DNA from: Elusimicrobiota bacterium
GTDB taxonomy: Bacteria > Elusimicrobiota > Elusimicrobia > UBA1565 > UBA9628
Length of the DNA: 64,000 bases
Assembly: GCA_003151975.1 (NCBI GenBank)
Contig: PLZD01000067.1
Coordinates: forward strand, 1,143-65,142
Direction of reading: 5' to 3'
The notes beneath the pieces were generated by a model. The model was not told the origin of the DNA. It saw only the letters and a program-made list of their open reading frames with translations, and did not search any database. Every line of letters starts with the position of its first letter. Positions within the stretch are counted from its first letter, which is position 1. Positions 28,917 to 46,527 of this stretch are shown one piece after another. A program made the position numbers and the translations under genes.

Positions 28917-29029
28917 GGCGCCAAAGCAACGCTGCGTCCTTTGACCCAAGCGAAGTTAGGCCCATTAACCGCTTCGTTTGGCCCAAAGGGCCCGAGCCCC
29001 GGGTCCATTTGCAGTGCAATAATGGGTCT

Positions 29030-32000: not shown

Positions 32001-35000
32001 CGCTCAAGGCCTACGCCAAGGCGCTCGAGAAGTATCCCGACATGGCCGAGCTCTACTACAACATGGGCAACGCCTACTTGAAGCTGGGCGACGTCGACCG
32101 CGCCAAGATCAGCTACGGCAAGTTTTTGAGCCTCAAACCCGACGCGAAGCTGGCTTCGAAGGCGATCTACAACATGGGCAACGCCGCGCTTTCCGCCAAG
32201 GACGTCGAAGGCGCTGTCGACAATTATAAGGAAGCCCTGCGCCGCGATCCGAACAACGACCGCGCCAAGTGGAACCTTGAGGTCATTAAGGCGCTCCAGA
32301 AAGAGCAGCAGCAGCAGCAATCCCAGCAGCAGCAGAAACAGCAGCAGAAGGAAGGCAAGCAGAAGCAGAACGGCAAGCAAAAGCAGAAAGGCGACCAGAA
32401 GGGCGATCAAAAGGGCGACCAGAAGGGCGATCAGAAAGGCGACCAGAAGGGAGACCAAAAGGGCGATCAGCAGGGCAAGCCCGGCGACCAGAAAGGCGAC
32501 GCCCAAGCCAAGCCCGGCGACAAAGAGAAGAGCGGCGCCGACCAGTTGACCGACAAACTCGGCGACCAGGAAAAGAAGGAAGGCGAGGCCGCGCGCAAGG
32601 CCATCCCGCGTAAGGGCGACAAGGTTTGGGGCCTCCTCGGACTGCCGCTGGCGGCCGGCGGCTCAACCGCCTTGGCTTTCGGCTCAGCCTGGATGCTCTG
32701 GGCGCTGGCTTTCGGCCTGCCCGTCGTCGCCGGCCTCATCGCCTACGGCATCCACAAGAAGATTCAAGCCGCCAAGCAGCTGACTCCGGGCACGGCGCCC
32801 GCGGGTTTTGCTTCCTGGTGGGGACGCAACGCTTTCCTGCGCAAGTCGGCGCTGATGATCACGGCGGCAGCCCTCCTTGGCCTGTCAGCGGCCAACCCGA
32901 AGAGCGGCTACAAGGACGAGCGCCTCAACTTCGGCGGCAAGGACATCGAGGTGGTGCTCGATAACTCGCTCTCCATGCTCTACGCCGAGGACGGCCGCGC
33001 CGACCGCACCCGCAAGGAGCTCACCGATTTCATCACGCACATGCAGGGCACCGACCGCATCGGCCTGGTGGTCTTCGCGGGCTCAGCAAGGACCGCGGCG
33101 CCCATCTCAATGGACTACGGCAATTTCGAGTACAAGCTGCAGAGGTTGGAAGTCGAGTCGCGCGGACTTAAATCCGGCTCGGACCTAGCCGCGGCGGTGC
33201 AGTTTGCCGCCAAGTCCTTCGAGGACGTCAAGCAGCTCGAGGGCCGCCAAAGGATCGTCATCATCATCTCCGACGGCGACATTTTCAACGAGGAACTCGA
33301 GGGCGCCGTAAAATCAGCGCAAGAGCACCACATCACGGTCTACACGATCGGCGTGGGCACGCCGGCCGGCTCCAAGATCAAGGTCCCGACCGAGGACGGC
33401 AAGGGCACCGAGTACGTCATCGACGAGAAGACCGGCCAGCCGGCCGTCACGACACTCGTCGAGGAGCCCCTGCGCCAGATCGCCTCGCGCACCGGCGGCG
33501 CCTACTTCCGCGCAGGCTCAGATTCCTCGATGAACCGCATTCTCGAGCAGATTTCGACGCTGCAGAAAGGCGAGAAGGGCGACACGATCAAGTCCCCGCG
33601 CGGCGTGGCGTCATGGTTCTTGTGGCCGACCATGCTCTTGCTGCTGCTCGAGATGCTGCTGCCGAGCAAGTCGGTGCTCAAGGACGACCGCAAAGAGAAA
33701 GCGCGCGGCGTAGCGGTTCTCGGCTTGGCCTCCTTGCCTTTGTCGGGTTATGCTCTGATGCTGCCTTTCGCCGTGCTCACGACCGTCGCCGTGGGCTTGC
33801 TTGCCGCCGACTATTGGAGCGGCGGAGCGATCCGGCGCAAGATCGCCTGGGAGCTCGAGCGCCGCCGCAAGCTCGTGGAAAACGGCGTCTTGACCGACGC
33901 CGCGGGCTTGTTCGATCTGCGCGAGACCGACGCCCCGAAGCTGTCGGCCTTCCTCAAGTCTTGGAGCGAGGCCGATGAGGCTGGAAAGAAAATCTTGTCC
34001 AACGAGGCGGTCTTAGACGAACAGCTGTGGCGCCAGAAGCTCGCCGCGGCCTTCGTCTACGGCAGCGCGCCGGAGACGCAGGAAGCGCTGCTCACGATGA
34101 TGGCGCGCACCGCGCAGAAGCGCCTCGAGCCGATGGCTCCGGTCGCCGAGCAGTTGCTCGCGCGGCGCGGCCGCCTGCCCTGGCTCGACCATGTCGACGC
34201 GGCGCGGCGCCTCGCGCGCCTCGCGCAGGCCTTCCTCGATAATTCGAAGCCTGAGAATCACGCCGCTTTGGTTTCGCTGCTCTCTCACCCCGACGCCGAG
34301 GTCCAGCAGGCCGCGCGCCAGGCGTTAGGCAGCGAAGTCCCGGCGCCGGCCCTCAAACGCGGGTTTTTCTTCAACTGGCGCAAATGGCTCTCGGTCGCCC
34401 TCTCGACTCTGATGCTCGCGTCCTCCATGACTTGGGCGGGCTTCTCCGGCTACAAGACGACGCAATTCTTCGAGGAGTCGGCCAAGGCGCGGGACTTCTC
34501 GATGCGGACCTTCTACCGCGAGGACATGTTCGTCTTCTCGGACCACTACGCCGACGACCGCATCACGACCGACGTCCTGCCGGCTCTCAAGGCGTGGCAA
34601 GAGAACCCGCAGTCCGCGGGCGCGGGCCTCGAGCGCGCACTGACGGTTCTCTCGCAGTCCCCCGATCCCAAGGCCGACAACGTGCTCGAAGTTATCCTTA
34701 AGCACGGCGACATCCTGCCGCTCACGCCGAAGGCGGAGTATATGCTGCTCCACACCCTCGTCATCCGCGACAACGACGACGTCTGGCGCTTCATGGAGGA
34801 CCACCTCCAGAAGAGCGCGCGCAACCCGCGCGCCGTCATCCTGATGGAGAAGATGATCGCCATAGGTGCTGCCGAGGGCAACGAGAAGGTTTTCCAGAAC
34901 ATCTTCCATTTCCTGAAGAGCCCCAGCGAGCAGATTCAGCAGGTGGCCACGGCCGCGATCGCGGCGTCGCTGTCGGCGCCCGACAAGGTGGCCAAGATCT

Positions 35001-38000
35001 TCGACCGCCTGACCGACGTGCAGTCGCGCTACGCTCAGGACCCCGAAATGAATTTGTGGGTGGAAAACTTCGTGCTCCAGCGTCTGGCGACGGCCGAGGC
35101 CAAGGACATCGACTCGGCCAAGGCGCGGGGCCTCATCGACAAGATTTTGGACGCGGGGTCGCCGTGGGCGGCGATGCGCGCTCAGGCGCTGGCCGCCCAA
35201 GCCGCGCAGCAAGCCCAGCAGCAGCCTCAAGCCGGCGCCGCCCCGGGCGCCGCTCCCCAGGCCCAGCAGCAAGCTCAGATTCCGCCGCCTTTCATCTTGA
35301 TCGTGTTCGGCCAGATGAACGACGCCGAGCAAGCTTTCGTTTCGAACGGCCAGGCCGTCCCCGGGCCGCTGGCCGACATGGTCAAGTACGCGGTCAACCG
35401 CACGATGACGCAGCTCATTAAGGAGGGCGAGGCGAAGTTCGGCGATTTGCACAAGCGTCTCATCGAAGCCGGCGTCGTCCTGCCCGATACTGAGAACTCC
35501 TACGGCGGCGGCTACGACGACGACTACGAGGGGCGCGGTTGGGGCGGCTACCGCGGCGGTCGCGGCGGCAGTTATTCCAGCACGTCGCAGAACTACCGCG
35601 AGCTCTACAAGCTCCAGCACATCCGCGATTTCGCCAAGCAGCTTTCCGAGGCCGCCCAGACGAGCGCCGCGGCCGACAGCGCATCGGTGAAGCCCGAGAC
35701 CCTCGAGTATCTCGACCGCGCCGCCCAGGCTTTGAAAATCATGGAGCCTCTGGGGCAAGCGTCGGGCATGCTCGATGGCGGCAGCGTGGGGGAGAAAGCG
35801 GCCGACGAGGTCAACAAAGTCCTCGACGCCACGGCCTCCAAGCTCACCGGCAGCGGTTTCCTCAACGCCCTGCGCGCCAAAAACGTCGCGCCCAGCAACG
35901 GGGTGGATTCCGGAGCCGCGCGCTTCCTCGAGACCTACACTTTCGAGAACATCGAGGCGATCAAGGCCGTGATCCGGGAGATCGCGGCATCCGGCAAGGG
36001 CTGGGACTACCAGGGCAACCAGCGGACTTTGCTGCTCAGCGAGAAGCAGGCGCTGGCCGCGGCCCTCGACGAGCTCACCGCCGCCGAAGCCAAGGTCTAT
36101 CCGGACAAGGCTAAGCCCGCGGCAGCGAGCGATTTCTGGAAGACGCTGGAGACGCCCGGCGAAGAGAGCCTGGCGTTGGCGCGCTTGAGCGTGGGCGCCG
36201 CCGCGCACGCGGCCGATGCCGAGTTCCAGCTGCGCGCGCTCAACTACCTGACGGCGCACGCCGACAAGAATTCCAATCCCGACGAGCTTTCCGAGATCAT
36301 CGCCCAACTGGCCAAGGCCGTCGAGAAAACCGACAAGGCCCCCGAGGTCCTCTCGATTCTCGCGCGCGTCGTCGACGGCAGGGCAGATAGCGATCCGCTG
36401 ACCGCCGCCATCCGAAAAGAGTATCAGCGCCAGGCGTCCGTCACGATCGCGGACGCGGTCTCAGGCTTCGGAAACCTGAGCCAGAAGCTGATCGATCTCA
36501 AGGTCCGGCCTTCCTCTTATTCCGATAAGCCGTACAAACTGATCGATCTCAAGGTTTTCCTTAAGGCGGTCGAGGACGAGGCGGCCGCCGTGGCCGGGCC
36601 GAATATGAGCGAGGACGCAAAGAAAGCGGCCGCTCGGGCACGGCTGATGGTGCCCAAGATCATCGAGCTGGGGACCAAGGTCGGCATCACGCCGGGAGAC
36701 TCCCCGGCCGATCTCGTCGCCGGTCCGGTCAACGATATCCTGCACCAGGGCTGGCAGCTCTTCGACGGCTCGACCTTCCTCGAGGCCATGCGCCGGCAGG
36801 GACTCGAGCCCGCGGGCAGCTCGACCGACATCTACACGGGCTACTACCAGGCTTACTCCAAGGACAGCCTCGAGAAGATCCTGAAATGGCTCAAGAACGT
36901 GAAGGCTTTGGGCGACGGCTGGAAATCGCAAGACATGTCCACCAAGCCCCTGAGCGACAAGGAGAAGGAATACCTCGACAAGGCCATCAAGGGCATCCAG
37001 GACCAGATCGACAACTATCCGAAAGCCGGGCCCGCCGCGACCGAAAAGAAAGTGTTCCACGGCATGGCGCTCGTCGGCTTGGGAACGCTCGGCACGGCGA
37101 TTTCCTGGATCGGAACCGGCCTGCTGATCGCGGCCGCGGCGGTGGTGATCTACTACGTGGTCCGCGCGGCGCTTAAGAAGACGAAGGCCGCGAGTCTGAC
37201 CCCCGTTTTCAACGCGGCGGCCGAAAGAACCGCGCCGGGACTCGACGGCAGATTTAAGAAAATCGAGATCACGGCCAAGCGCGTGGCCAACTCGGTGGCC
37301 GGCGGCAACTTTCGATCCGTTTTCATCGGCGCGGGCGGCACGGATTTCGCGGAAAGCAAGCCCTACGCCGGCGAGGACCTGCGCGACGTCGACTGGAAGA
37401 CCACCGCGCGCCAGGGCGAGCTCTACGCCAAGAAGTACGAGCTCGAAAAAGACATGCCGCTCATGCTGCTCATCGATCTCTCGCGCTCGGCCCAGTTCGG
37501 CACGCGCGGCGAATCCAAACGTGGCGTTATTGAAGACGCTTCCTCGGTTCTCGCGCTGGCGGCCGCCAACACCAACCTGCGCGTCGGCGCCATCATCTTC
37601 TCCGACAAGGTCGAGGCCTACATCCCGCCGCAATCCGGCGTCAACCACGCCCGCGAGATCGTGCGCCGCGTGCTCGCGTTTGATCCTAAGGGCCAAGCCA
37701 CGGACCTCAAGCCTGCGCTCGGTCTAGCGCTTAAGGAACTGCGTTCCCGGTCCATGATCGCGGTCGTCTCGGATTTCATCGCTCCTGATTTCAAGAATTC
37801 GCTGATGGCGCTCTCAGCGCGCCACGACCTGCGCCTGATCCGCGTCTCCGATCCCGCCGAGACCGCGCCCCTGCCAAAGGTGGGCCTGGTGCTCGTGCGC
37901 GACGCCGAGACCGGCGAGGTGCGCTACGTCGACACTTCCGATACGCGCTTCCGCACCGAGCACGCCGCCTTGCTGGCCAAGCAGGAAGCCGCCCGCCAGG

Positions 38001-38098
38001 CCGCTTTTACCGCCGCGCGCACCGTGCCGCTCACGCTTTCGACGGAAGGGGACCCTCTCGAGGCCCTGGCCGTGTCGCTTAGCCCCAAGAAAAAATGA
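29030..38098 (+). CDS. giant polytopic membrane protein (~3022 aa): single-polypeptide fusion of BatD-like, BatA-like VWA, BatC-like TPR plus Q/K tail, BatB-like VWA, ~1080 aa HEAT-like helical region and C-terminal DUF58 (MoxR-partner) domain
   Basis: Uninterrupted 9.07 kb ORF. Start is ATG 29030 (MLRRFIATVVCAALIVACPG signal peptide) or TTG 29009. MIDAS motifs DVSGSMDE at 31022 and DNSLSM at about 32960. TPR repeats at about 31961-32293. Q/K-rich (KGDQ)7 at 32387-32470. DUF58 signature KPYAGEDLRDVDWKTTARQGELYAKKYELE at about 37360. At least 14 hydrophobic TM segments flank the modules. Confidence 0.85.
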   Translation: MLRRFIATVVCAALIVACPGIESYHAIAGELGEINVGARRAPALPALPTAILPGIANITQLSQTPGNLATVTEVATVHSAIATPGAAAANTSSISNASAVAQPETAEVENAGKLITPEVLAGLNATTKGVSEAVEALAKPDLSAEGAHAVGVRLEGAVSPAVSAEEISPAASGFSNFSGNVHAKQKRGLVQSVGFFAKAKGFVRTISVAAVLTIATLGGPVLAQTVPQGPAPAGQQQQVPAPAQPGAPVLGAPQDTVQAEEPAPKQIGPISATIAIQGQNMTVGDRFHIALTLTNSSDKPVTIANLRNSLNDALPTDVELQMNSGSDAVTLKPGETQTVVFETIAFASGDIAMGGPLIFNAQLNGQAAEMQAILADGAITVKSVLTPDWKKIGFKDIYSVLRQDVPLWAWLAAIPLLLSLLVAGERVLAAQRRGAKVLSVGQPLLVSTRARMKALEGALEQNDAAFYAEYYSILSTFLIDSHGLSVKERDAKTLISDLKKAKKLSSGQLKVASDLAFSAEAARFGGRATTAEQRSADLAALSSLVDNIAGASKTQKTEGLHSLGGPMTGLQFGNPYALLLFLPLAGYLAWKFIGRKQASAQAAYPLSTLSSVSPRKSFRQRFGWLTKGLRAAAVSLILLGIADPQLGVRRQETITPSTDTELIIDVSGSMDEAFNGSGSPSKLVAAEEAMKAYINEQRRGTQNRVGLVTFSDESYVDIHLTQDYDALIAHLKELHTISSTAIGKGILTATGQFLEANAYELTSQDDPRIIEVQRLIRTEGLGAALEYAKPYPDLMDKIVRPDRKKVIVLFTDGESNTGLEPIPASEIAAKLGVRIYTVGIAPKGGTGVGYDENTLVTVAKNTGAQFFRADDADRMREILLEINRLEKSPTKIVSAVSVQSYQQWFIMLALLALGLELGLANTRLRVLSGFLMFTLPFGSVVNFNPAQQPAAIVQTVDAQAPAAESALPTTGVPAEVAAANLLFNSGRYDEALKAYAKALEKYPDMAELYYNMGNAYLKLGDVDRAKISYGKFLSLKPDAKLASKAIYNMGNAALSAKDVEGAVDNYKEALRRDPNNDRAKWNLEVIKALQKEQQQQQSQQQQKQQQKEGKQKQNGKQKQKGDQKGDQKGDQKGDQKGDQKGDQKGDQQGKPGDQKGDAQAKPGDKEKSGADQLTDKLGDQEKKEGEAARKAIPRKGDKVWGLLGLPLAAGGSTALAFGSAWMLWALAFGLPVVAGLIAYGIHKKIQAAKQLTPGTAPAGFASWWGRNAFLRKSALMITAAALLGLSAANPKSGYKDERLNFGGKDIEVVLDNSLSMLYAEDGRADRTRKELTDFITHMQGTDRIGLVVFAGSARTAAPISMDYGNFEYKLQRLEVESRGLKSGSDLAAAVQFAAKSFEDVKQLEGRQRIVIIISDGDIFNEELEGAVKSAQEHHITVYTIGVGTPAGSKIKVPTEDGKGTEYVIDEKTGQPAVTTLVEEPLRQIASRTGGAYFRAGSDSSMNRILEQISTLQKGEKGDTIKSPRGVASWFLWPTMLLLLLEMLLPSKSVLKDDRKEKARGVAVLGLASLPLSGYALMLPFAVLTTVAVGLLAADYWSGGAIRRKIAWELERRRKLVENGVLTDAAGLFDLRETDAPKLSAFLKSWSEADEAGKKILSNEAVLDEQLWRQKLAAAFVYGSAPETQEALLTMMARTAQKRLEPMAPVAEQLLARRGRLPWLDHVDAARRLARLAQAFLDNSKPENHAALVSLLSHPDAEVQQAARQALGSEVPAPALKRGFFFNWRKWLSVALSTLMLASSMTWAGFSGYKTTQFFEESAKARDFSMRTFYREDMFVFSDHYADDRITTDVLPALKAWQENPQSAGAGLERALTVLSQSPDPKADNVLEVILKHGDILPLTPKAEYMLLHTLVIRDNDDVWRFMEDHLQKSARNPRAVILMEKMIAIGAAEGNEKVFQNIFHFLKSPSEQIQQVATAAIAASLSAPDKVAKIFDRLTDVQSRYAQDPEMNLWVENFVLQRLATAEAKDIDSAKARGLIDKILDAGSPWAAMRAQALAAQAAQQAQQQPQAGAAPGAAPQAQQQAQIPPPFILIVFGQMNDAEQAFVSNGQAVPGPLADMVKYAVNRTMTQLIKEGEAKFGDLHKRLIEAGVVLPDTENSYGGGYDDDYEGRGWGGYRGGRGGSYSSTSQNYRELYKLQHIRDFAKQLSEAAQTSAAADSASVKPETLEYLDRAAQALKIMEPLGQASGMLDGGSVGEKAADEVNKVLDATASKLTGSGFLNALRAKNVAPSNGVDSGAARFLETYTFENIEAIKAVIREIAASGKGWDYQGNQRTLLLSEKQALAAALDELTAAEAKVYPDKAKPAAASDFWKTLETPGEESLALARLSVGAAAHAADAEFQLRALNYLTAHADKNSNPDELSEIIAQLAKAVEKTDKAPEVLSILARVVDGRADSDPLTAAIRKEYQRQASVTIADAVSGFGNLSQKLIDLKVRPSSYSDKPYKLIDLKVFLKAVEDEAAAVAGPNMSEDAKKAAARARLMVPKIIELGTKVGITPGDSPADLVAGPVNDILHQGWQLFDGSTFLEAMRRQGLEPAGSSTDIYTGYYQAYSKDSLEKILKWLKNVKALGDGWKSQDMSTKPLSDKEKEYLDKAIKGIQDQIDNYPKAGPAATEKKVFHGMALVGLGTLGTAISWIGTGLLIAAAAVVIYYVVRAALKKTKAASLTPVFNAAAERTAPGLDGRFKKIEITAKRVANSVAGGNFRSVFIGAGGTDFAESKPYAGEDLRDVDWKTTARQGELYAKKYELEKDMPLMLLIDLSRSAQFGTRGESKRGVIEDASSVLALAAANTNLRVGAIIFSDKVEAYIPPQSGVNHAREIVRRVLAFDPKGQATDLKPALGLALKELRSRSMIAVVSDFIAPDFKNSLMALSARHDLRLIRVSDPAETAPLPKVGLVLVRDAETGEVRYVDTSDTRFRTEHAALLAKQEAARQAAFTAARTVPLTLSTEGDPLEALAVSLSPKKK
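32387..32470 (+). repeat. in-frame tandem 12-nt repeat (aagggcgaccag)x7 encoding (KGDQ)7 within the megaprotein
   Basis: Seven consecutive near-identical 12-mers; lies inside a Q/K-rich low-complexity tail after the TPR block. Confidence 0.9.
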
Positions 38099-39615
38099 AC
38101 CGAGGTAACGCCATGAAGACGACGCTCTCGCAAATGATGAAGACTGCGGCCTTGCTGGGCCTGTTCGCCCTGCTCTGTCCCCGCGCGGCGCACGCTGTTG
38201 ATTTCGCCGAGCGCTCCGCGGTGACGCCCGGCGTCCAGCTCAAGCTTGTGACGCTCGACCCGAAGATCGGCGCGCTCGGCAAGCCCGGCGACGGCATCAG
38301 CATCGACCCCCTCGCGGCCCAGCTTCACAATGTCCTGACCGCGGCCGGCCTCTTGACCGAGGCCCCCGGCCAGATCGCGATCCTCACGATCCCTCAGCCC
38401 TTGGCGACGATTTCCAACGGCCCTAAAGCCGCCAACGACGTCGGGACTCCGGCGGAGGCCTCGCAGGCGCGTCTTGCCGAGATCACTAAGACGGTTGTGG
38501 ATATGCCCGACATCTCGAAGGCCGAAGGCACGGATGCCTCCGGCGCTGGACGCACGCTCTCCGACGCCGTCACCGGAGAGAAGACGGTCCACGCCGGCGC
38601 CGTCGAGGCCGAGGCGACGCCGACGGCTCCCGCTAAGCCGCTCAAGCAGCAAATCACCGAGGGCAAAGCCGTCGTCGACGGCATCCGCTCCGAAGTCAGC
38701 AAGGTCATCGTCGGCCAGAATGAAATGATCAACTCGATCATCATGACGATGATCGCGCGCCAGCACGTTCTGCTCGAAGGTCTGCCCGGCGTCGGCAAAA
38801 CCGAAACCGCCAAGGCCTTCGCCGACGCGATCGACGGCTCGTTCCAGCGCGTGCAGGGCACTTCCGACAAGCTGCCCTCCGACATCCTCGGCACCGAGGT
38901 CCTTCAAGAGGACCCGGCCACCGGCAAGAAGTTCTGGGAGCTCTCTAAGGGCCCCATCTTCACGAACATCCTGCTCGCCGACGAAATCAACCGCATGCCG
39001 CCCAAGGCCCAGGCGTCCTTGCTCGAAGCCATGGCCGAAGGCCGCGTGACCATCGGCCGCCAGACGGTCGACCTGCAGCGCTTCACGGTGCTCGCCACGC
39101 AAAACCCCGTCGAGCAGGACGGCACCTACCGCCTGCCCGAGGCGCAGCTCGACCGCTTCATGTTCAAGGTGCTCGTGCCTCAGCCGAGCGCGTCGGATTT
39201 GAAGGTCATCATGGAGCGCAACCGGTCGAAGGAGAACCGCCCGAAAGCGTCCAAGGTCACGAACTTGGCGCAGTTGGACGACATCCGGCGCACCGCCGAG
39301 CAGATCCCGATGGACGCTCAGATCGAGGACTACATCATCAAGATCGTCATGGCCGCCAAGGAGCACGCCGATCTCAAGGATAGTGTGGAATACAGCGTCT
39401 ACACGCGCGCGGCGATCTTCATGGCGCAGGCCGCCCGCATCCACGCCTTGATGGAAGGGCGCGATTGGGTGAGCCCCGCGGATGTGCGCGCGGTAGCACC
39501 CCTCGTCATGCGGCACCGCATCGTGCTCAACTACCAGGCCGCCGGCACGACGTCCGACCAGGTCATCACGAAGATTCTCGACTTGGTCGCTCCGCCGAAG
39601 GTCGCGGCCAAGTAA
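38095..39615 (+). CDS. MoxR-family AAA+ ATPase (AAA_3) with N-terminal signal-anchor and ~190 aa Ala/Pro/Thr-rich extension
   Basis: 506 aa; ATGA overlap with the megaprotein stop; Walker [10 protein letters not shown], Walker B LLADEINR, sensor ATQNP; N-terminal hydrophobic segment [20 protein letters not shown]. Confidence 0.88.
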
Positions 39616-39637
39616 GTTTCAGGCTGTCGCAATAAAA

Positions 39638-39666
39638 CGAGGCCCCCGAAAGGGGGCCTTTGTTTT
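39638..39666 (+). terminator. rho-independent terminator after moxR
   Basis: GGCCCCC-gaaa-GGGGGCC perfect 7 bp GC stem followed by TTTGTTTT. Confidence 0.85.
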
Positions 39667-39722
39667 GCCGGCAGAGTTTTCTCATATACAACAGACCGGC
39701 TTGTTCGTATGATCTGTGCTGC

Positions 39723-41471
39723 ATGCGGGTTCTTTGCTCAGGCCTTCGTTTCCTTTGCGTCGGCGTCGTTCTCGCGTCTGCGTGCGGTTCCGGCGATCAA
39801 CTGCGCGCGGCGTCGCCCGCAGCCTGCGAACAGTCGTTGATCTCGTCGTGGCAGCAGTCTCTCCCCTCGGTGGGATTTGCGAGCGCCGCGTCGGCGGCCG
39901 CGTATGACGCCGAGATCGCGGCCCTTCTTGATCGTCCCTGGATGGGGCATCCGCTGTCCACGTATCCGGGAGGACGCTGGCCCGCCGTCTCGGTGGCGGT
40001 CGTCCAGCAAGGCAGGCTCGTCTTCGCCAAGAGCTATGGCTTTGCGAATATCTCGCAGCCTCAGCTGGCCCACCCCGATGACCTCTTCCGTCTGGCAAGC
40101 GACAGCAAGCAGATCACCGGCGCCGTGATCTTGAAGCTGATCGCCGACGGTCAATCGGTCGACGGCGATCCGGCGCATCGGCTGACTCTGCAGAGCAAGG
40201 TCTTCCAGATCCTGGCCAGTCCGCCCGGTGCCCTCGCGCCGCTCGCGGGGCCCGGGACGCTTCATGCGGACCTCGACGACATCACGGTCGAGGATCTCCT
40301 GCACCACGCAGGCGGATGGAACGGCGGCGTCGGCGATCCGGTAGACTACGCCGGCAAGCCGGGGGCCGTCCTTCCGCCGACCGACAAGGATGTGGTCCGG
40401 TACATGATGAACCAGCCGGTCCAGCACAGGCCGCATGGCAGCACTTACTGCTACTCGAATTTTGGCTACAACGTGCTGGCGACTTTGGTCGAGAAGATAA
40501 CAGGCCGATCCTATGAGAGCGTCGCAAAAGACCTCGTGCTGCGGCCCTTGGGCATCACGCGCATGAAAATCGGTGATTCGCTCAAATCCGGTGCCGGCGA
40601 GGTCACGTACTACGCGGCCGAGGGCGGTGGAAACTTGAGGTCGCTGTTTCCAGAGATGACCGGGCCCACGGTCTCCGGAGAGGACGCGCCCTACGGCAGT
40701 TGGTCTCTCTACGCGGGCCGGGGCGCGGGCGGCTGGATTGGTTCTGCGATGGACATGGTGCGTTTTCAGATCGGCGTGGATGGGACGGGCCCGGTCCAGC
40801 TTTTCTCCTCGCCGCAAGCGATGGTCTCGAGCGCCAATATCTCGCCTAACGCCTGCTACCCAAATTACAATCCGGCGACGCAGTGGTACAACGCCGGCTG
40901 GATCGTCGTCAAAAACGGCGTGTGGGGACATGACGGCGGCGCCACGGGCGCGGGAAGCAACACGACGAAGCTTCCCAACGGCGACGGCTACGCGGCCGTC
41001 ATCAATATGTCCGCAGCGCCCCCGAAGGGAGAAGTCTTCGATTGGGACGGGGCTCTCTCGAGAGCTTACCATCGCACGCTCGCCAACGGCGGCTCGTTTT
41101 TAAAAACCGACCTTTTCGATCAATTTGGAGAGTGGACCGCGTGGCGCGGCAAGGCCGGCATTTCATCGAACGCCGCTCATGATCTTGGCGCCGGCTGCGC
41201 GTACAAGGGGAAAAACTATTCCGCGTGCTATCCTTCGCGAATCGAGGGACGGCAGACCCGGGCGGGGGCAAGCTACCGGGCCGAGTTCGTGCCGCTGCAT
41301 GCCGGAGGCGAGGTTAAATACTCTTTGGGAGCCGCCTGCAATGACTTCGCGGCGATGGATAAGAAATATTTGAGCGGCGGTTATCACCGAGTCAACCTTC
41401 AATGGTTCGAGGACCCGGCGGGGCGCATGCGCTTTCAAAGCGTGTGGGTCAAGGCGGCCGACCGGCGTTGA
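39723..41471 (+). CDS. beta-lactamase-fold serine hydrolase lipoprotein (PBP4/AmpC/esterase family) with ~200 aa C-terminal extension
   Basis: Lipobox LASAC; SDSK (SxxK) and YSN motifs; ATG about 63 nt into the track ORF (MRVLCSGLRF...). Confidence 0.75.
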   Translation: MRVLCSGLRFLCVGVVLASACGSGDQLRAASPAACEQSLISSWQQSLPSVGFASAASAAAYDAEIAALLDRPWMGHPLSTYPGGRWPAVSVAVVQQGRLVFAKSYGFANISQPQLAHPDDLFRLASDSKQITGAVILKLIADGQSVDGDPAHRLTLQSKVFQILASPPGALAPLAGPGTLHADLDDITVEDLLHHAGGWNGGVGDPVDYAGKPGAVLPPTDKDVVRYMMNQPVQHRPHGSTYCYSNFGYNVLATLVEKITGRSYESVAKDLVLRPLGITRMKIGDSLKSGAGEVTYYAAEGGGNLRSLFPEMTGPTVSGEDAPYGSWSLYAGRGAGGWIGSAMDMVRFQIGVDGTGPVQLFSSPQAMVSSANISPNACYPNYNPATQWYNAGWIVVKNGVWGHDGGATGAGSNTTKLPNGDGYAAVINMSAAPPKGEVFDWDGALSRAYHRTLANGGSFLKTDLFDQFGEWTAWRGKAGISSNAAHDLGAGCAYKGKNYSACYPSRIEGRQTRAGASYRAEFVPLHAGGEVKYSLGAACNDFAAMDKKYLSGGYHRVNLQWFEDPAGRMRFQSVWVKAADRR

Positions 41472-41486
41472 TGGGGTGAAGTTTGA

Positions 41487-42077
41487 TCAGGGCTTGGGCG
41501 CGCGGCCGCCCATCCACTTCAGCGCCGCGCCCGACGGTTTATGGCGGGAGAAAAGATCCAGCAGCTCCGACGGATCATTTGCTTCGTAGAAAAGCGAGCG
41601 ATGCTCGGCGCGGATCAGGCCCTGATCCACGGAATGATCGACGAACTTTAAGAAGTGATCGAAGTAGCCGTCGATGTTGAGCAGGCCGCAGGGTTTTTGA
41701 TGAATGCCGAGTTGCGCCCAGGTCACGATCTCGCAGAACTCGTCCATGGTCCCGAAGCCGCCGGGCAGAGCGATGAAGCCGTCGGAGAGCTTGGCCATCA
41801 TGGCTTTGCGCGCGTGCATCGAGCCCACGACCTTTAAATCGGAAAGATTCGCGTGAGCGACTTCGAGCTTAACCAATTGTTTCGTTATGACGCCGACGAC
41901 TTCGCCGCCCTCCGCGAGCACGGAATCTGCGATGGCGCCCATCAAGCCCACGCTCGCACCCCCGTAAACGAGGCCTAAACCGCGCCTAGCCATCAATTTA
42001 CCGAGGGTGACGGCCGCCGACCTAAACGAATCGCTTTTACCGGAATTTGAGCCGCAAAAGACGCAGATTCTTTTCAT
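41487..42077 (-). CDS. LOG family cytokinin riboside 5-prime-monophosphate phosphoribohydrolase / Rossmann-fold nucleotide-binding protein
   Basis: 196 aa; ICVFCGSNSG, GGASVGLMG, PGGFGTMDE motifs. Confidence 0.88.
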   Translation of the reverse strand: MKRICVFCGSNSGKSDSFRSAAVTLGKLMARRGLGLVYGGASVGLMGAIADSVLAEGGEVVGVITKQLVKLEVAHANLSDLKVVGSMHARKAMMAKLSDGFIALPGGFGTMDEFCEIVTWAQLGIHQKPCGLLNIDGYFDHFLKFVDHSVDQGLIRAEHRSLFYEANDPSELLDLFSRHKPSGAALKWMGGRAPKP

Positions 42078-43429
42078 CGCAAAGTGAGGTTCAGAGCCCA
42101 GACCATGAACAATACCAGCGGCACATGCACGACGAACTGCAGCGCCGTGTAGCCGACGATGTCGCGCGCCTTAAGGCCGAGAATCCCCAACAGCGGCAGC
42201 ATGAAGAAGGGATGGATCAAATTCGGCAAGGCTTCGGCCGCGTTGTAGATCTGCACGACCCAGCCCAGGTGCACCTGTAAAGTTTTAGCGGCCTCGAGCA
42301 GGTAGGGCGCCTCGATGAGCCACTTGCCGCCGCCCGACGGAATGAAAAGACCCAGCACCGCCGAATAAACGCCGACGAGCAGAGGATAGCTCTCGCGCGT
42401 GGACGCCGAGACGAACAAGTGCGCCAAGGACGAGGCCAGGCCTGACTCGGTCAGCATCTTGAGTATGCCCGCGTAGAGCGGATATTGGATCAAGATTCCC
42501 GCGGTTGCCGGGACCGAAGCACTGACCGCCTGCATATAAGATCTTGGGCGCCAATGCAGAAGCAATCCAATGATCCAGAAAACGAAGATGTAGTTGTTGA
42601 GCTCGAGCAGTTCGCTCAAGCCCTTGTCGCGCACGGTCGCGTATAGATATCCCGCGCCGCACAGTGAAAGAAAAACGCTCAATAGGGGCGAATGCTCGAG
42701 CCACTCGCCGGGCTTCGTGGGTTTCCCGGACTTGAAATGAACGGGCTCATACGCCAGGCCCATGTCCGACATCGACTTGGCGGCGCTGGCTGGCGGCGCG
42801 GAGGCCGCCGCGATCGTGACCGTGACCGTAATCAGCAATCCCGCGAGCAGCGCGCTCTGCCAAAGCCCCAAAGTCTGCGAGAGGGGGATGACGCCGCTGA
42901 CTTGCATCAAGCCGGGCGGTATCGAGCCGGGAGCCGCCATGATCAAGGCGGCCGATGACGACAAGCCCAGCGCCCAGGTCGAGCCCAATCCCATGTACGC
43001 GGCGGCCCCAAGAGCGCGGTAATCCGAACCTTTGACGCGATGCGCGACTTCCCGGGCCAAGAATCCCGAAAAGATCAGGCTGAAGCTCCACGAAAGCAAA
43101 GAAGTCAGCATCGAGAACAGCGCGACAAAGGCCACGGCCGAGCGCCCGTTCTTCGGAATGCCGGCCAACTTCTGAATCAAGGAATAAACGGCAGGCGAAG
43201 TCGCCACCGCGTAGCCGCAGACCAGCACCATCGCCATTTGCAGCGTGAACTTCATGAGATCCCAGAAGCCCGCGCCAAACCACTGCGCCGTCTGCAAAGG
43301 CGTCGCGCCCGCGCCGAGACAGGCGAAGAAAACCGCGAGCACGGCGCACAGCGCCAGCACGAACGAGTCGGGAAACCAGCGCTCGAACCAGTCGGACAGC
43401 TTGATGCCGGCGCGCGCCAGTCGATTCAT
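42074..43429 (-). CDS. atoE: short-chain fatty acid transporter AtoE family
   Basis: 451 aa; close match by memory to E. coli AtoE blocks (AREVAHRVKGSDY, IPSGGGKW, GILIQYPLYAGI). Confidence 0.8.
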   Translation of the reverse strand: MNRLARAGIKLSDWFERWFPDSFVLALCAVLAVFFACLGAGATPLQTAQWFGAGFWDLMKFTLQMAMVLVCGYAVATSPAVYSLIQKLAGIPKNGRSAVAFVALFSMLTSLLSWSFSLIFSGFLAREVAHRVKGSDYRALGAAAYMGLGSTWALGLSSSAALIMAAPGSIPPGLMQVSGVIPLSQTLGLWQSALLAGLLITVTVTIAAASAPPASAAKSMSDMGLAYEPVHFKSGKPTKPGEWLEHSPLLSVFLSLCGAGYLYATVRDKGLSELLELNNYIFVFWIIGLLLHWRPRSYMQAVSASVPATAGILIQYPLYAGILKMLTESGLASSLAHLFVSASTRESYPLLVGVYSAVLGLFIPSGGGKWLIEAPYLLEAAKTLQVHLGWVVQIYNAAEALPNLIHPFFMLPLLGILGLKARDIVGYTALQFVVHVPLVLFMVWALNLTLR

Positions 43430-43554
43430 GCGGGCTCATACTATCAAAAGGAGCGCTTAGGCCAATAGGGCCGATCTTGCCGGGACCAAAGATGAGCCGT
43501 CGTTGGGTCCATTGGCCCAAGCTGGCATGGCGTGAAACCCCTACAATGGGGTTG

Positions 43555-46527
43555 ATGAGGAGAATGTTGTCGCTCGCGCTTTTGGCCATGTTCGCAATGC
43601 CGTTATTTGCGGGCGAGTCCGTCGAGGTCAGAATCACGGGCTTTGACGCGGCCCCCAAGGCGCTTGGCACGGGCACTTCGCCTCTGCGCCTCGTCCCGAC
43701 CGGCGTCAACAACATTCCCCAGCTTCCCGCGGGCATCACCGATTTGAAGACGTACGACGGCCCCATGGGCGCGTTCCAGATGCCCGCGGCTTCATACTTG
43801 CCTCAATACGAGGTTTCAAAAGGCGCGGTCGTAGCCCCGGGACTGCGGCTCGCGACCCCCGAGGAGGGGGCGACTCCCGAAGCCATTGGGCCCAAGAGCG
43901 AACTCTCCGAGACCGGTCCGGCCAACCACGATTCCGAGAAGCCATCCGCGAAGGCCGAGCTCAACGCCGCGGGCGTCGAGGGTGCTTCCAATCCGCAGGC
44001 GCCCGCCGAGGACCTGGCCGCGGGCGAAAAGAAAGTTTTCGACGGCGAAAGCGCGACGACTCTGACTTACGCCGAAGTGGCCCCGAGCCGCATAGGACGG
44101 TTACTCAACGCGGCGGGGTCCCTGCTCAGCCGCGGCGTCAAGCGCGTGCTGCCGGCAAAGAAGGTCGACGCTCCTCCGACGACCGACGCCTACGGCGGCC
44201 CGCAGCGGCTCGAGCTGGGCTTCAAGGGCAAGATTTCCTACGGCCTCAAGTGGGGCCTCAACATGATCGGCCTAGGCGCGCTGGTCAACGTCGCGGCCAA
44301 GTTCTTCGCGATGATCCTGCCGTGGCAGCTGCTCGTTCCCGATTCCATGCTGCAGTCCGCCGGCCGTGCCGAGCTCTTGGCGCGCATGGGTCCCAAGGCG
44401 GTCGACGCGGCCTTGGTCCACTCGCCGTGGCACTTTCTCTTCGTGCAGCTGCCCAGCGCCACGTTCTGGGAGGAAGCCGGCACCCTTCCCATGATGCTGA
44501 CCGCCGTCGGCTTCCGCGGGCTTGAGCTCGGCGTGCTGTGGTTCATACTCAAGGGCGCGCGCAACGCCGCAAACGCGCTGTCGCAGAAAATCGGCCAGCC
44601 GGTTTTGAAGACGATCCTCGCCGCTTTGGGCGCGATTTCAAACAAGAAAGTTTTCTACGCCGCGCTGGCGCTCACCGTCGTGAGCTTCGTCGCTCCGCCC
44701 CTGCATATCGCGCTCGCGCCGCTGACTTACTCCGCGCTCGGTTCGCGCTTGTTCGGCTTCGGCGTGCTGTGGAGCGCGCTGGCCGCGGTCCGCCCCGTCG
44801 CTGACCAGCTGGCCAAGTGGCTCGAGGCGGTTCCCGATCTCATGGGCGTGCGCAGCGGCGCGCAATCCGCGCTCGGCCACATCGGCGGCATTTCAAAGAA
44901 GGCCTTCCCGATGGCCGCTTTCGTCTCGGCTTTGGCATTCGCCGCTAATCACTTCGCGGCCTGGGGCGTGAGCCCGTCGCTGATCGTTTTGCAGACGACG
45001 ATGGGCGCGACCTTGGCCTACATTAGCTACAAGACGCGCAGTCTCTTCGTGCCCTTCGTGGCGCACTACGCTTTCAACTTGCTGACTTTGGGCGGCGCGC
45101 TGCTCGCGGCCCACTTCCTCATGCCGATGGTAGCGCAGATCTACACGCTGGGCCTCGGCGTGACGGGAGTCGCTTTCCTTTATTACAACTGGCGCGCCAA
45201 CCACAAGACGAAGGCTCAGGCCAAGGCTCAGCACAAAGCGGATTTGATGGCGCGCGCCGGCAAAGTCGTCTTGCCTGTTCTCTTGATGGCGATGACGGCC
45301 GGCTCCTTGATCGGGCCCGGTCATCTGACCAAGTCCTTTAATGAGGCCGCCAACAACAAAGCCGCTCAGACTTGGACCGTGCAGGACGTGGACAAAGCCG
45401 ACAAGAAGGCTGAGTCCACGCCCGCGGCCGCCAAGCCCGCCGCCGATACCGCCAAGGCCCAGCCGGTGCGCGTCAGCCTCTCGCAGGCCATCGACATCAT
45501 GACGATCCAGGCCACCGCCAAGGCCAAGCCCGCCGTGGTCAAGATTTTTTCGGGCAACGCTTTGGGCTCGGGCTACATCATCTCGGCCGACGGCATCGTG
45601 ATCTCCAACGCCCACGTGACCGGGGCGGCGGAGGTCGGCGACATTCTGAACATGGAGTTCTCCGACGGCACCACCGGCAAGGTCAAGGTTCTGGCTTTCA
45701 ACCACAACAAGGACATCGCGATCTTGCAGCTGCCGGCAAAAGAGGGCGGCTGGCCGTTCATCCCGCTAGGCGATAGTAAGAAGCTCTCCGAGGGCCAGGG
45801 CGTGCTCGCGATGGGTTATCCGCTCGGCCTGCCCTTCACCGTGACGCGCGGCATCATCAGCGGCATCGGCGGCGGCCGCGGCAGCATCTACGTCCAGCAG
45901 ATCCAGACCGACGCGGCCATCAATCACGGCAACTCCGGCGGCGCGCTCATCAACATGGACGGCGAGGTCATCGCGATGAACACCGCGATCGCCGCCCCCA
46001 CGCCCGAGAGCGGCTCGATCGGCATCGGCTTTTCGATAACGTCGGAGGATATCAAGGCGGCGCTGAGTCAATACGCGGCCATGGGCAACATCAACACTTC
46101 TTGGATCGGCATCATCGTCAATCAGGCCAACCCGACGGCCCCTGATCAAGGAGTGCTCATCGAGGTCGTCCGGCCGGGCTCGCCCGCCGATAAGGCGGGG
46201 CTGCGCGGCGGCGACCTGCTGCTCGGCGCCGAGAAGCACCGCTTCGACAAGGGACCGCGCGGCCTGGAGGCGCTGGCCCGCACCATCGCTCAGCACAAGC
46301 CCGGCGAGAAGATCGAGGTGCTCGTGGCGCGTCAGGGCGACGTGGCGCCGGTCGCCGTCACTTTGGCCAACGAGCCCGGCTCGCCGACGGCAGTCGCCGC
46401 TCCCGCCGCGACGACTCCCGCCGCACCCGCACCCGCGCCCGCACCGAAGCCTTCGCTGTGGGGGCGCTTCACCGGCGCCTTGTCCGAGATCCTGCGGGCG
46501 ATCTTCTCCGGCCTCTCTCCTAAATAA
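43555..46527 (+). CDS. secreted/membrane fusion protease: N-terminal periplasmic region, CPBP (CAAX/Abi) intramembrane protease-like domain, HtrA-like trypsin serine protease and PDZ
   Basis: Signal peptide MRRMLSLALLAMFAMPLFAGE (alternative starts 43546 and 43564; track TTG 43477). CPBP motifs WEEAG, FAANH, HYAFN. Trypsin triad NAHV, NKDIAIL, GNSGGAL. PDZ GVLIEVVRPGSPADKAGL. Confidence 0.8.
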   Translation: MRRMLSLALLAMFAMPLFAGESVEVRITGFDAAPKALGTGTSPLRLVPTGVNNIPQLPAGITDLKTYDGPMGAFQMPAASYLPQYEVSKGAVVAPGLRLATPEEGATPEAIGPKSELSETGPANHDSEKPSAKAELNAAGVEGASNPQAPAEDLAAGEKKVFDGESATTLTYAEVAPSRIGRLLNAAGSLLSRGVKRVLPAKKVDAPPTTDAYGGPQRLELGFKGKISYGLKWGLNMIGLGALVNVAAKFFAMILPWQLLVPDSMLQSAGRAELLARMGPKAVDAALVHSPWHFLFVQLPSATFWEEAGTLPMMLTAVGFRGLELGVLWFILKGARNAANALSQKIGQPVLKTILAALGAISNKKVFYAALALTVVSFVAPPLHIALAPLTYSALGSRLFGFGVLWSALAAVRPVADQLAKWLEAVPDLMGVRSGAQSALGHIGGISKKAFPMAAFVSALAFAANHFAAWGVSPSLIVLQTTMGATLAYISYKTRSLFVPFVAHYAFNLLTLGGALLAAHFLMPMVAQIYTLGLGVTGVAFLYYNWRANHKTKAQAKAQHKADLMARAGKVVLPVLLMAMTAGSLIGPGHLTKSFNEAANNKAAQTWTVQDVDKADKKAESTPAAAKPAADTAKAQPVRVSLSQAIDIMTIQATAKAKPAVVKIFSGNALGSGYIISADGIVISNAHVTGAAEVGDILNMEFSDGTTGKVKVLAFNHNKDIAILQLPAKEGGWPFIPLGDSKKLSEGQGVLAMGYPLGLPFTVTRGIISGIGGGRGSIYVQQIQTDAAINHGNSGGALINMDGEVIAMNTAIAAPTPESGSIGIGFSITSEDIKAALSQYAAMGNINTSWIGIIVNQANPTAPDQGVLIEVVRPGSPADKAGLRGGDLLLGAEKHRFDKGPRGLEALARTIAQHKPGEKIEVLVARQGDVAPVAVTLANEPGSPTAVAAPAATTPAAPAPAPAPKPSLWGRFTGALSEILRAIFSGLSPK

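Follow-up and report, generated by a model that had tools for sequence, protein, structure and literature searches.

Proteases of the CPBP/Rce1-like family (PF02517), among them MmRce1 (PDB 4CAD), MrtX, MrtJ and MroQ, carry three short motifs in consecutive membrane helices. The myxosortase MrtX, a member of the CPBP family, cuts secreted proteins that are held in the inner membrane by an anchor (PMC11980579), and in MmRce1 the two termini lie on the lumenal side and the cavity opens toward the cytosol (PMC5874806). Serine proteases of the HtrA/DegP/DegQ/DegS group (MEROPS S1C, TIGR02037) share a His/Asp/Ser triad, a GNSGG motif and the PDZ domain. MarP (Rv3671c) consists of an N-terminal multi-pass domain and, outside the membrane, a chymotrypsin-fold protease; its membrane domain has four helices and is not a protease, and it lacks a PDZ domain. 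In the DegS-RseP and PrsW-RasP cascades two proteases, one periplasmic or juxtamembrane and one intramembrane, act on a single membrane substrate, and the PrsW-toxin fusions and an ABC-permease/CPBP fusion (NF041647) are precedents for the covalent joining of a CPBP-clan peptidase to another module. Here we describe a plus-strand gene, found in a stretch of 64,000 nucleotides (the window) of contig PLZD01000067.1 from an Elusimicrobiota bacterium, that encodes a CPBP domain, an HtrA-type protease and a PDZ domain in a single polypeptide (Table 1).

The pairing of CPBP with HtrA-PDZ is built from two well-known protease families. The fusion family to which the gene belongs is already present in public databases, uncharacterised and so far in Elusimicrobiota only. 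An original prediction made from the DNA sequence had placed a signal peptide, an N-terminal region, a polytopic CPBP domain, a linker, an HtrA protease and a PDZ domain in this one polypeptide, and profile hidden Markov model (HMM) searches of the protein and of its whole family agree with it. The explanation that we favour, and to which we give about an even chance, is that the gene encodes a bifunctional inner-membrane protease, with CPBP and HtrA-PDZ parts coupled as a two-protease envelope module. Following the signal peptide and a disordered periplasmic N-terminal region of approximately 200 residues, the chain would cross the membrane ten times (eight times in most relatives) and form a CPBP/Rce1-type glutamic intramembrane protease core from E332/E333, R424, F488/H492 and H530/N534; a Lys/Arg-rich cytoplasmic loop and the predicted transmembrane helix TM9 would then bring the chain back to the periplasm, where a flexible linker of approximately 60 residues would tether the HtrA protease (H713/D746/S820) and one PDZ domain. 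The two proteases may act in sequence on the same membrane- or lipid-anchored envelope proteins: the CPBP domain would clip the substrate at the membrane surface, and the tethered PDZ-HtrA part, probably a trimer like other HtrAs, would bind the exposed chain or new C-terminus and degrade or trim the periplasmic part, or the order of the two cleavages could be reversed. A stronger version of this mechanism, which we regard as distinctly doubtful, is a self-contained "clip-and-degrade" machine in which a cut at the membrane surface by the periplasm-facing CPBP domain would deliver the new C-terminus to the PDZ domain and switch on HtrA, making the protein a fused, ATP-independent cascade of the site-1/site-2 kind.

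The proposed CPBP/Abi domain is recognised by the Rce1-like profile PF02517 at residues 474-536 (32.5 bits, where the gathering score is 22.4; E = 1.1e-7), so this part of the original prediction stands. In the window protein the match spans positions 37-93 of the 93 in the profile, covering motifs 2 and 3; in members that lack the insertion described below it extends to as much as positions 3-93, motif 1 included. The family alignment gives the canonical forms EExx[FY]R, FxxxH and HxxxN for the three motifs. F488 and H492 of motif 2 are invariant in 48 of 48 members, as is H530 of motif 3, and the position of N534 is occupied by Asn in 38 and by Asp in three. E332 of motif 1 is present in all 47 aligned members, E333 and the motif-1 Arg in 42 each, and both Glu residues together with the Arg in 42 of the 47, as a contiguous EExx[FY]R in those without the insertion. 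No NCBIfam model of a named CPBP subfamily reached its cut-off: the family has weak matches to Mrt_core, MrtJ, MrtP and MroQ, with the window protein scoring 17.1 bits against 75 for MrtJ, and the best relatives 28.1 against 100 for Mrt_core, 32.4 against 75 for MrtJ and 22.6 against 270 for MroQ. The fusion family also differs from known CPBP/Rce1-like proteins in an extra loop of approximately 38-40 residues between motifs 1 and 2, in its long disordered N-terminal region with FDG and DxYGGP motifs, and in being joined covalently or operonically to HtrA, to which the window protein adds the splitting of motif 1 by 88 residues. From the PrsW-toxin fusions and NF041647 (20 bits against a cut-off of 435) it differs in that the CPBP part is fused to another protease, which carries a PDZ domain, and not to a toxin or a transporter.

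The HtrA part is matched by Trypsin_2 at residues 697-834 (E = 2.9e-28) and by Trypsin (E = 1.9e-14), and the C-terminal part as a whole by the Do-family model TIGR02037 (E = 1.3e-64). The catalytic triad is kept in 38 of 38 (His), 37 of 39 (Asp) and 35 of 36 (Ser) aligned members, the GNSGG motif is present, and the AlphaFold2 model of the domain is beta-rich, as expected of a chymotrypsin fold, with a predicted local distance difference test score (pLDDT) above 90. The single PDZ domain is matched by PDZ_2 at residues 877-963 (E = 1.9e-7, 31.7 bits) and by PDZ_6 (E = 1.6e-6, 28.2 bits), both above the cut-off of 27, and is modelled at a pLDDT of approximately 84-96. All six motifs quoted in the original prediction lie where it had put them (WEEAG at 331, FAANH at 488, HYAFN at 530, NAHV at 711, NKDIAIL at 744 and GNSGGAL at 818), and its complete HtrA triad and PDZ domain are borne out by these positions and by the Pfam matches. 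By cut-off, the protein is not an ortholog of DegP (144 bits against 720), DegQ (143.7 against 756), DegS (139.6 against 423) or the HhoA family (161.7 against 450), and it is also below the cut-off of the Do subfamily (218.8 against 416.2). It would resemble DegS in being membrane-tethered, with a protease domain that is probably extracytoplasmic, but it has one PDZ domain only and, in place of a single helix, an anchor of eight to ten helices that is itself a putative protease. The MarP model NF033740 matches with E = 3.2e-20 but at 72.5 bits against a cut-off of 250.

A word-indexed search returned four relatives at approximately 60% identity (P0001-P0004), of which P0001 covers 100% and P0002 97% of the query in end-to-end alignments, both at 60% identity; P0003 is named as coming from an Elusimicrobia metagenome-assembled genome (MAG). 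No identical database entry was found by exact look-up of the window protein. When the membrane part by itself, or its profile, served as the query, word-indexed searches gave almost nothing, and recovery of the family needed an exhaustive search of representatives: with the membrane-region profile, 57 representatives were found among 1.84 billion proteins, 36 of them with E < 1e-30 and most of them 700-950 residues long. Among 48 members scanned with Pfam, 44 had the Rce1-like match (best E = 1e-17), 36 had Trypsin_2 and 34 had PDZ. All members with a named organism are from Elusimicrobia/Elusimicrobiota MAGs, and the one match in a species-genome collection was an Elusimicrobia MAG already known. 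The members are labelled in databases as "trypsin-like peptidase domain-containing protein", as "Rce1 family protein" or as hypothetical, and one IMG entry names both the CPBP and the HtrA parts.

In one subclade the two parts are encoded by separate, overlapping genes, a form counted here for the loci L009 and L011/L012. At L009 a CPBP protein of 483 residues (P0044) ends in the basic loop and is followed by an HtrA-PDZ gene of 372 codons, which overlaps the P0044 stop codon by 4 nucleotides and begins MRKLATLVMLAALPASS. At L011 and L012, which represent two assemblies among the five contigs on which P0046 was found, P0046 is followed through an ATGA overlap by an HtrA gene of 379 codons. Because the same pair is fused in most members and encoded by a translationally coupled operon of overlapping genes in one subclade, there is good evidence, from gene arrangement, that the CPBP and HtrA parts work together, and the two-protease envelope module proposed in the original prediction thereby gains independent support, the activity of both domains being a prediction. 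The neighbour-joining tree is rough and star-like, and the split clade is not basal; the tree leaves the polarity between fused and split forms unsettled. Two further loci, L008 (P0009, 2150-2520) and L010 (P0020, 6230-6520, from the 3.8-Mb record CP096137.1), were considered as cases of gene fission and left out of the count, since in both the homology continues in another frame, as in frameshifted fused genes; they are annotated publicly as "CAAX protease" plus "trypsin-like" genes, and the frameshifts are sequencing errors or pseudogenes. A few distant members have the CPBP part only. One of these, P0055 (L014, 514-5806; L015, 446-5738), is followed by a protein of 460-511 residues and then by a subtilisin-type S8 peptidase, and L015 also encodes a Trypsin_2 protein. 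There are hints that this CPBP lineage is associated with secreted serine proteases more generally.

The segments of the window protein are ordered as signal peptide, N-terminal region, TM1, helix X (with the EE pair), two insert helices and helix Y (with the Arg), then a loop of approximately 38 residues, the motif-2 helix, TM6, the motif-3 helix, TM8, the basic loop, TM9, the linker and HtrA-PDZ. In 33 near-full-length members, the predicted cytoplasmic loops hold on average 5.5, 1.9 and 4.9 Lys/Arg residues, the last figure being that of the basic loop before TM9, and the short predicted periplasmic loops hold none. By this distribution the EE pair and H492 would each lie close to the end of the helix that faces the periplasm. 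The HtrA domain is probably extracytoplasmic, judging from the signal peptide, the even number of helices, the Lys/Arg distribution and the signal peptides of the separately encoded HtrA proteins, and the CPBP motif residues would lie toward the periplasm, on the same side as HtrA. The helix after the EE pair is predicted to run from periplasm to cytoplasm, opposite to its direction in the archaeal Rce1; because the helix order is thus inverted in the membrane relative to MmRce1, the CPBP cavity should face the periplasm, giving the protein a periplasmic active side as in MrtX. The AlphaFold2 model of the membrane part has a mean pLDDT of 82.4 and a predicted template modelling score of 0.67, and in the full-length model HtrA and PDZ are above a pLDDT of 90 and the N-terminal region is disordered.

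The original prediction had read WEEAG as an atypical motif 1. Atypical it is, not through substitution but through an insertion of 88 residues between the EE pair and the Arg, which leaves R424 92 residues downstream of E332-E333 and the window protein with no contiguous EExxxR. Insertions of 85-93 residues are found in the window protein, P0001 and P0002 and are missing from 45 of 48 family members; the short forms P0003 (WEEFGSR) and P0004 (WEEITGR) have a normal EExxxR and align to helix Y around R424. The first inserted helix, GFRGLELGVLW, is a copy of the downstream helix GSRLFGFGVLW (alignment score 41 against 18.7 +/- 3.9 for shuffled sequences; 58 against 24.9 +/- 4.9 when compared with the corresponding helix of P0003), and the duplicated FRG sits 14 residues after the EE pair. 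The second inserted helix was compared with helix X as a possible duplicate and gave no significant score (17 against 18.4 +/- 3.9). Among its three carriers the insertion is 57% identical, well above the 29-37% of the disordered N-terminal region and linker, which indicates that it is under constraint; for the core, this comparison gives 74-80%. Since the insertion adds an even number of helices (two predicted), topology is preserved. Helix X is modelled at a pLDDT of approximately 91-95. Elsewhere in the family, five members (P0030, P0031, P0039, P0043 and P0054) have ET for EE and lack the motif-1 Arg, with the first Glu and both His residues kept. P0029 (906 residues) has a different, independent duplication, of the helix before EE (SPGSFLGLPLLAVAAAGF ... 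SPGAFLGMSLPLMVGMEE), with EEVSYR intact, and for this reason the X/Y junction of this CPBP family seems to be a hotspot of helix-hairpin duplication.

Several results weigh against a bifunctional protease. Both insertion junctions have a pLDDT below 50, and with the EE pair and the Arg so far apart the CPBP site of the window protein may be impaired by the split of motif 1; because of the insertion, there is more doubt about CPBP activity in this protein than in other members. The side on which the cavity opens is deduced from the positive-inside rule and from a review's description of MmRce1. When the membrane-domain model was compared with the PDB by Foldseek, nothing matched significantly, Rce1 included; the chance matches (E of 0.45 or higher) were BAR domains and MFS transporters. 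For a bundle of membrane helices this outcome was taken as uninformative and is not counted against the fold. Searching the PDB sequences with a profile gave nothing but a chance match to Utp17. No conserved partner gene was found: neighbourhoods differ among distant members, and these share no neighbours with the window locus. A search of a literature library found no paper describing a CPBP-HtrA combination.

Some of these points favour another explanation, unlikely but deserving serious weight, in which the CPBP-like domain is dead in the window protein, perhaps throughout its subclade, and serves as a polytopic anchor or scaffold that holds HtrA-PDZ at the inner membrane. The interrupted motif 1, its poorly modelled junctions and the Pfam match restricted to the second part of the profile speak for this, and five family members are already without the second Glu and the Arg. 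The single helix of DegS and the four helices of MarP do comparable anchoring work, and Abi/CPBP-domain proteins, such as SpdC of S. aureus, reportedly act as scaffolds. Against this, the three proteins with the insertion keep every one of E332, E333, R424, H492, H530 and N534; across the family the catalytic Glu and the two His residues vary little or not at all, a constraint for which simple anchoring gives no reason; and the insertion is itself conserved and keeps the topology. The loss of the second Glu in some members need not inactivate the site, since in MmRce1 this residue does not point into the cavity (PMC5874806).

The HtrA genes of L009 and L011/L012 carry their own signal peptides and start exactly where the basic loop and TM9 lie in the fused form; the basic loop and TM9 of fused proteins, which together look like the n- and h-regions of a signal peptide, therefore correspond to the HtrA signal peptide. 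The fusion could be no more than a device for co-expression and its product a precursor, TM9 being cleaved by signal peptidase I or by the CPBP domain in cis to give a soluble HtrA-PDZ and a stand-alone CPBP protein. Exactly these two products are made by the split-gene relatives, in which the HtrA signal peptide looks cleavable (at L011/L012 the protein begins MRRLLLAGLLALGATRAAA, with a site between TRAAA and QIE), and in the fusion protein a site of small residues, between A-G-S and L, follows the hydrophobic core. There is also a parallel in proteins with an N-terminal PrsW, a CPBP-related peptidase, fused to a C-terminal cargo, for which autoproteolytic release of the cargo has been proposed (PMC3482391). 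However, the c-region, TAGSLIGPG, departs from the canonical AXA site, the 60-residue flexible linker looks like a tether, and fusion would be needless if separate products were wanted, yet it is kept in most lineages, with both parts in at least 36 of 48 sequences. We consider such processing quite unlikely.

A very improbable alternative to the coupled envelope module is a single-chain device for regulated intramembrane proteolysis, in which PDZ-HtrA would be a DegS-like, stress-sensing site-1 protease and the CPBP domain would act like RseP or PrsW on an anti-sigma factor or other regulator. The domain logic parallels that of membrane-tethered DegS (HtrA plus PDZ) followed by an intramembrane protease, the DegS model TIGR02038 matches with E = 1.4e-40, and PrsW, a distant relative of CPBP, makes the site-1 cut in RsiW (PMC3482391). 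That DegS match is nevertheless below its cut-off, and no DegS or RseP equivalog cut-off is reached. The proteases of the DegS-RseP and PrsW-RasP cascades are separate proteins of other families (M50) and are linked to genes for sigma and anti-sigma factors, whereas no sigma/anti-sigma or M50 site-2 protease gene lies beside the CPBP-HtrA gene, either in the window or at any related locus examined, its neighbours being housekeeping genes (dapA, dapF, a short-chain fatty acid (SCFA) transporter and a thiolase). That two genes were joined in the window by an assembly or frameshift error is scarcely credible, for although frameshifted copies exist in public assemblies (L008 and L010), the fused frame is continuous in the window and in at least 36 independently assembled relatives, and P0001 and P0002 align with it from end to end.

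Table 1. Features of the CPBP-HtrA gene, in window coordinates
Feature	Position	Strand	Basis or remark
Longest open reading frame, stop codon included	43477..46527	+	TTG start, 1016 residues, as in the original prediction
Probable start and signal peptide MGLMRRMLSLALLAMFAMPLFA, cleavage before GES, residues 24-46	43546..43614	+	homologue alignment; cleavage sites between ARA and xDVE in homologues
Low-complexity periplasmic N-terminal region, residues 47-236	43615..44184	+	short family-wide motifs FDG and LGRxLP
D-x-Y-G-G-P motif, residues 237-242, then TM1, residues 249-280	44185..44316	+	family conservation
Helix X with the catalytic Glu pair E332-E333 at its end (CPBP motif 1, first half)	44425..44475	+	conservation, AlphaFold2
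Subclade-specific insertion, residues 334-421	44476..44739	+	two extra membrane helices and a basic loop between EE and xxxR
Helix Y (GSRLFGFGVLWSALA) with R424, the Arg of EExxxR	44740..44787	+	alignment to the short forms P0003 and P0004
CPBP motif 2 helix, FAANH (F488, H492)	44902..44964	+	inside the Pfam Rce1-like match
CPBP motif 3 helix, HYAFN (H530, N534)	45043..45117	+	inside the Pfam Rce1-like match
TM8, residues 550-572; Lys/Arg-rich cytoplasmic loop, 573-593; TM9, 594-612	45124..45312	+	Lys/Arg counts, split-gene relatives
Ala/Lys/Thr/Pro-rich periplasmic linker, residues 613-675	45313..45501	+	mostly low pLDDT
HtrA-type S1C serine protease domain, triad H713, D746, S820	45502..46071	+	Pfam, NCBIfam, conservation, AlphaFold2
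Single PDZ domain	46099..46371	+	PDZ_2, PDZ_6
Pro/Ala linker and amphipathic C-terminal helix SLWGRFTGALSEILRAIFSGL, residues 966-1016	46372..46524	+	insertion-bearing subclade only

The open reading frame is listed exactly as originally described, with a TTG start. The true start of the gene is probably the ATG at 43546 (M24), 23 codons downstream, because the N-termini of homologues align at M24 and the signal peptide begins there; a signal-peptide-like N-terminus is found in most of the full-length family members listed. The signal peptide and a periplasmic N-terminal region had been foreseen correctly, but the length of the latter, put at approximately 260 residues, is nearer 200 after the signal peptide. 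Residues 47-236 have no Pfam match, are modelled at a pLDDT below 50 over most of their length and are 29-35% identical with those of close relatives (14-37% for the linker before HtrA), yet an FDG motif and a basic LGRxLP stretch within them are kept across the family. Just before TM1 is a nearly invariant family motif, D-[DE]-[YF]-G-G-P (DAYGGP in the window protein), whose D214, G218 and P219 (numbered from M24) are conserved in at least 90% of 48 sequences, and from which onward the pLDDT exceeds 90. A motif of this type is also present in the CPBP proteins encoded by split genes, and so belongs to the CPBP module.

At the other end of the protein, the C-terminal helix is found in the window protein, P0001 and P0002 (59-63% identity) and is absent from P0003 and P0004. 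It has a hydrophobic moment of 1.49, a mean hydrophobicity of 0.75 and a pLDDT of approximately 53-64, and may lie on the membrane surface or serve as an intramolecular ligand. Considered as a copy of the LGRxL motif of the N-terminal region, it has a weak likeness, of marginal significance (p approximately 0.03), to the segment PSRIGRLL.

The CPBP-HtrA gene is the only plus-strand gene between 41487 and 50101, the genes at 29009-41471 also being on the plus strand. It had been pointed out as a lone plus-strand gene, which is true of this interval but is not a feature of the family: in the related loci L001 (7025-11967) and L002 (6962-10976), which keep the order patatin, TPR protein, dapF, dapA and CPBP-HtrA gene, the gene is co-directional with dapA, and its reversal in the window (43430-46527) is therefore a local, lineage-specific inversion of a single gene. 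In the window it converges on dapA with overlapping stop codons (dapA 46520, CPBP-HtrA gene 46527). Inverted repeats, promoters and terminators that might explain the inversion were sought, with nothing above chance and no flanking inverted repeats. Synteny with L001 and L002 extends through a Bat-like megaprotein, MoxR, a variable region, the SCFA transporter (in the window and L001) and the CPBP-HtrA gene to dapA, dapF, the TPR protein, patatin, OEP, HAMP and PFK. The megaprotein (29009-38098, plus strand) has 3029 residues, among which are several VWA domains, TPR repeats and, at the C-terminus, a DUF58 domain, and is followed by a MoxR-type AAA ATPase (38095-39615, plus strand); the pair resembles a fused Bat/MoxR-VWA system, with equivalents of 3016 and 3149 residues beside the locus in L001 and L002. 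The variable stretch (39660-43429) encodes in the window a 603-residue protein of the beta-lactamase family, a LOG/lysine-decarboxylase-like gene and the SCFA transporter, in L002 a Ser/Thr kinase and a PLD-family gene, and in L001 two unannotated genes and the SCFA transporter. The original prediction that the CPBP-HtrA gene shares leader blocks with the Bat megaprotein gene is not supported: the best BLASTP match has E = 0.46, and the best DNA match is 31 nucleotides at 77% identity (E = 0.04). A local alignment of the two leaders (score 44 against 30.4 +/- 5.3 for shuffled sequences, p approximately 0.02) was set aside as a likeness of signal peptide and low-complexity sequence, and homologues of the fusion protein do not keep GVNNIPQL, the stretch that is similar.

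Bacterial CPBP/Abi proteases are very numerous and their known substrates are few; the prokaryotic members "remain largely unexplored", according to a 2025 paper on myxosortases (PMC11980579). The conserved coupling of CPBP to HtrA-PDZ, fused or operonic, offers a clue by guilt of association and suggests a part for at least one CPBP lineage in envelope processing or quality control. No general principle is changed, as neither domain is unfamiliar, proteases with several domains are common and the family is restricted to Elusimicrobiota that have not been cultivated. The system is a compact one for tests, with two mutable active sites in one gene and natural fused and split forms, and the subclade of the window protein is a natural experiment on the glutamic-protease site, with a helix-hairpin duplicate inside EExxxR and the catalytic residues all kept. 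If the "clip-and-degrade" mechanism is true, it would provide the first functional context in envelope quality control for the large and mostly uncharacterised bacterial CPBP pool, and in the insertion-bearing subclade it would mean that EExxxR still works when divided between two helices.

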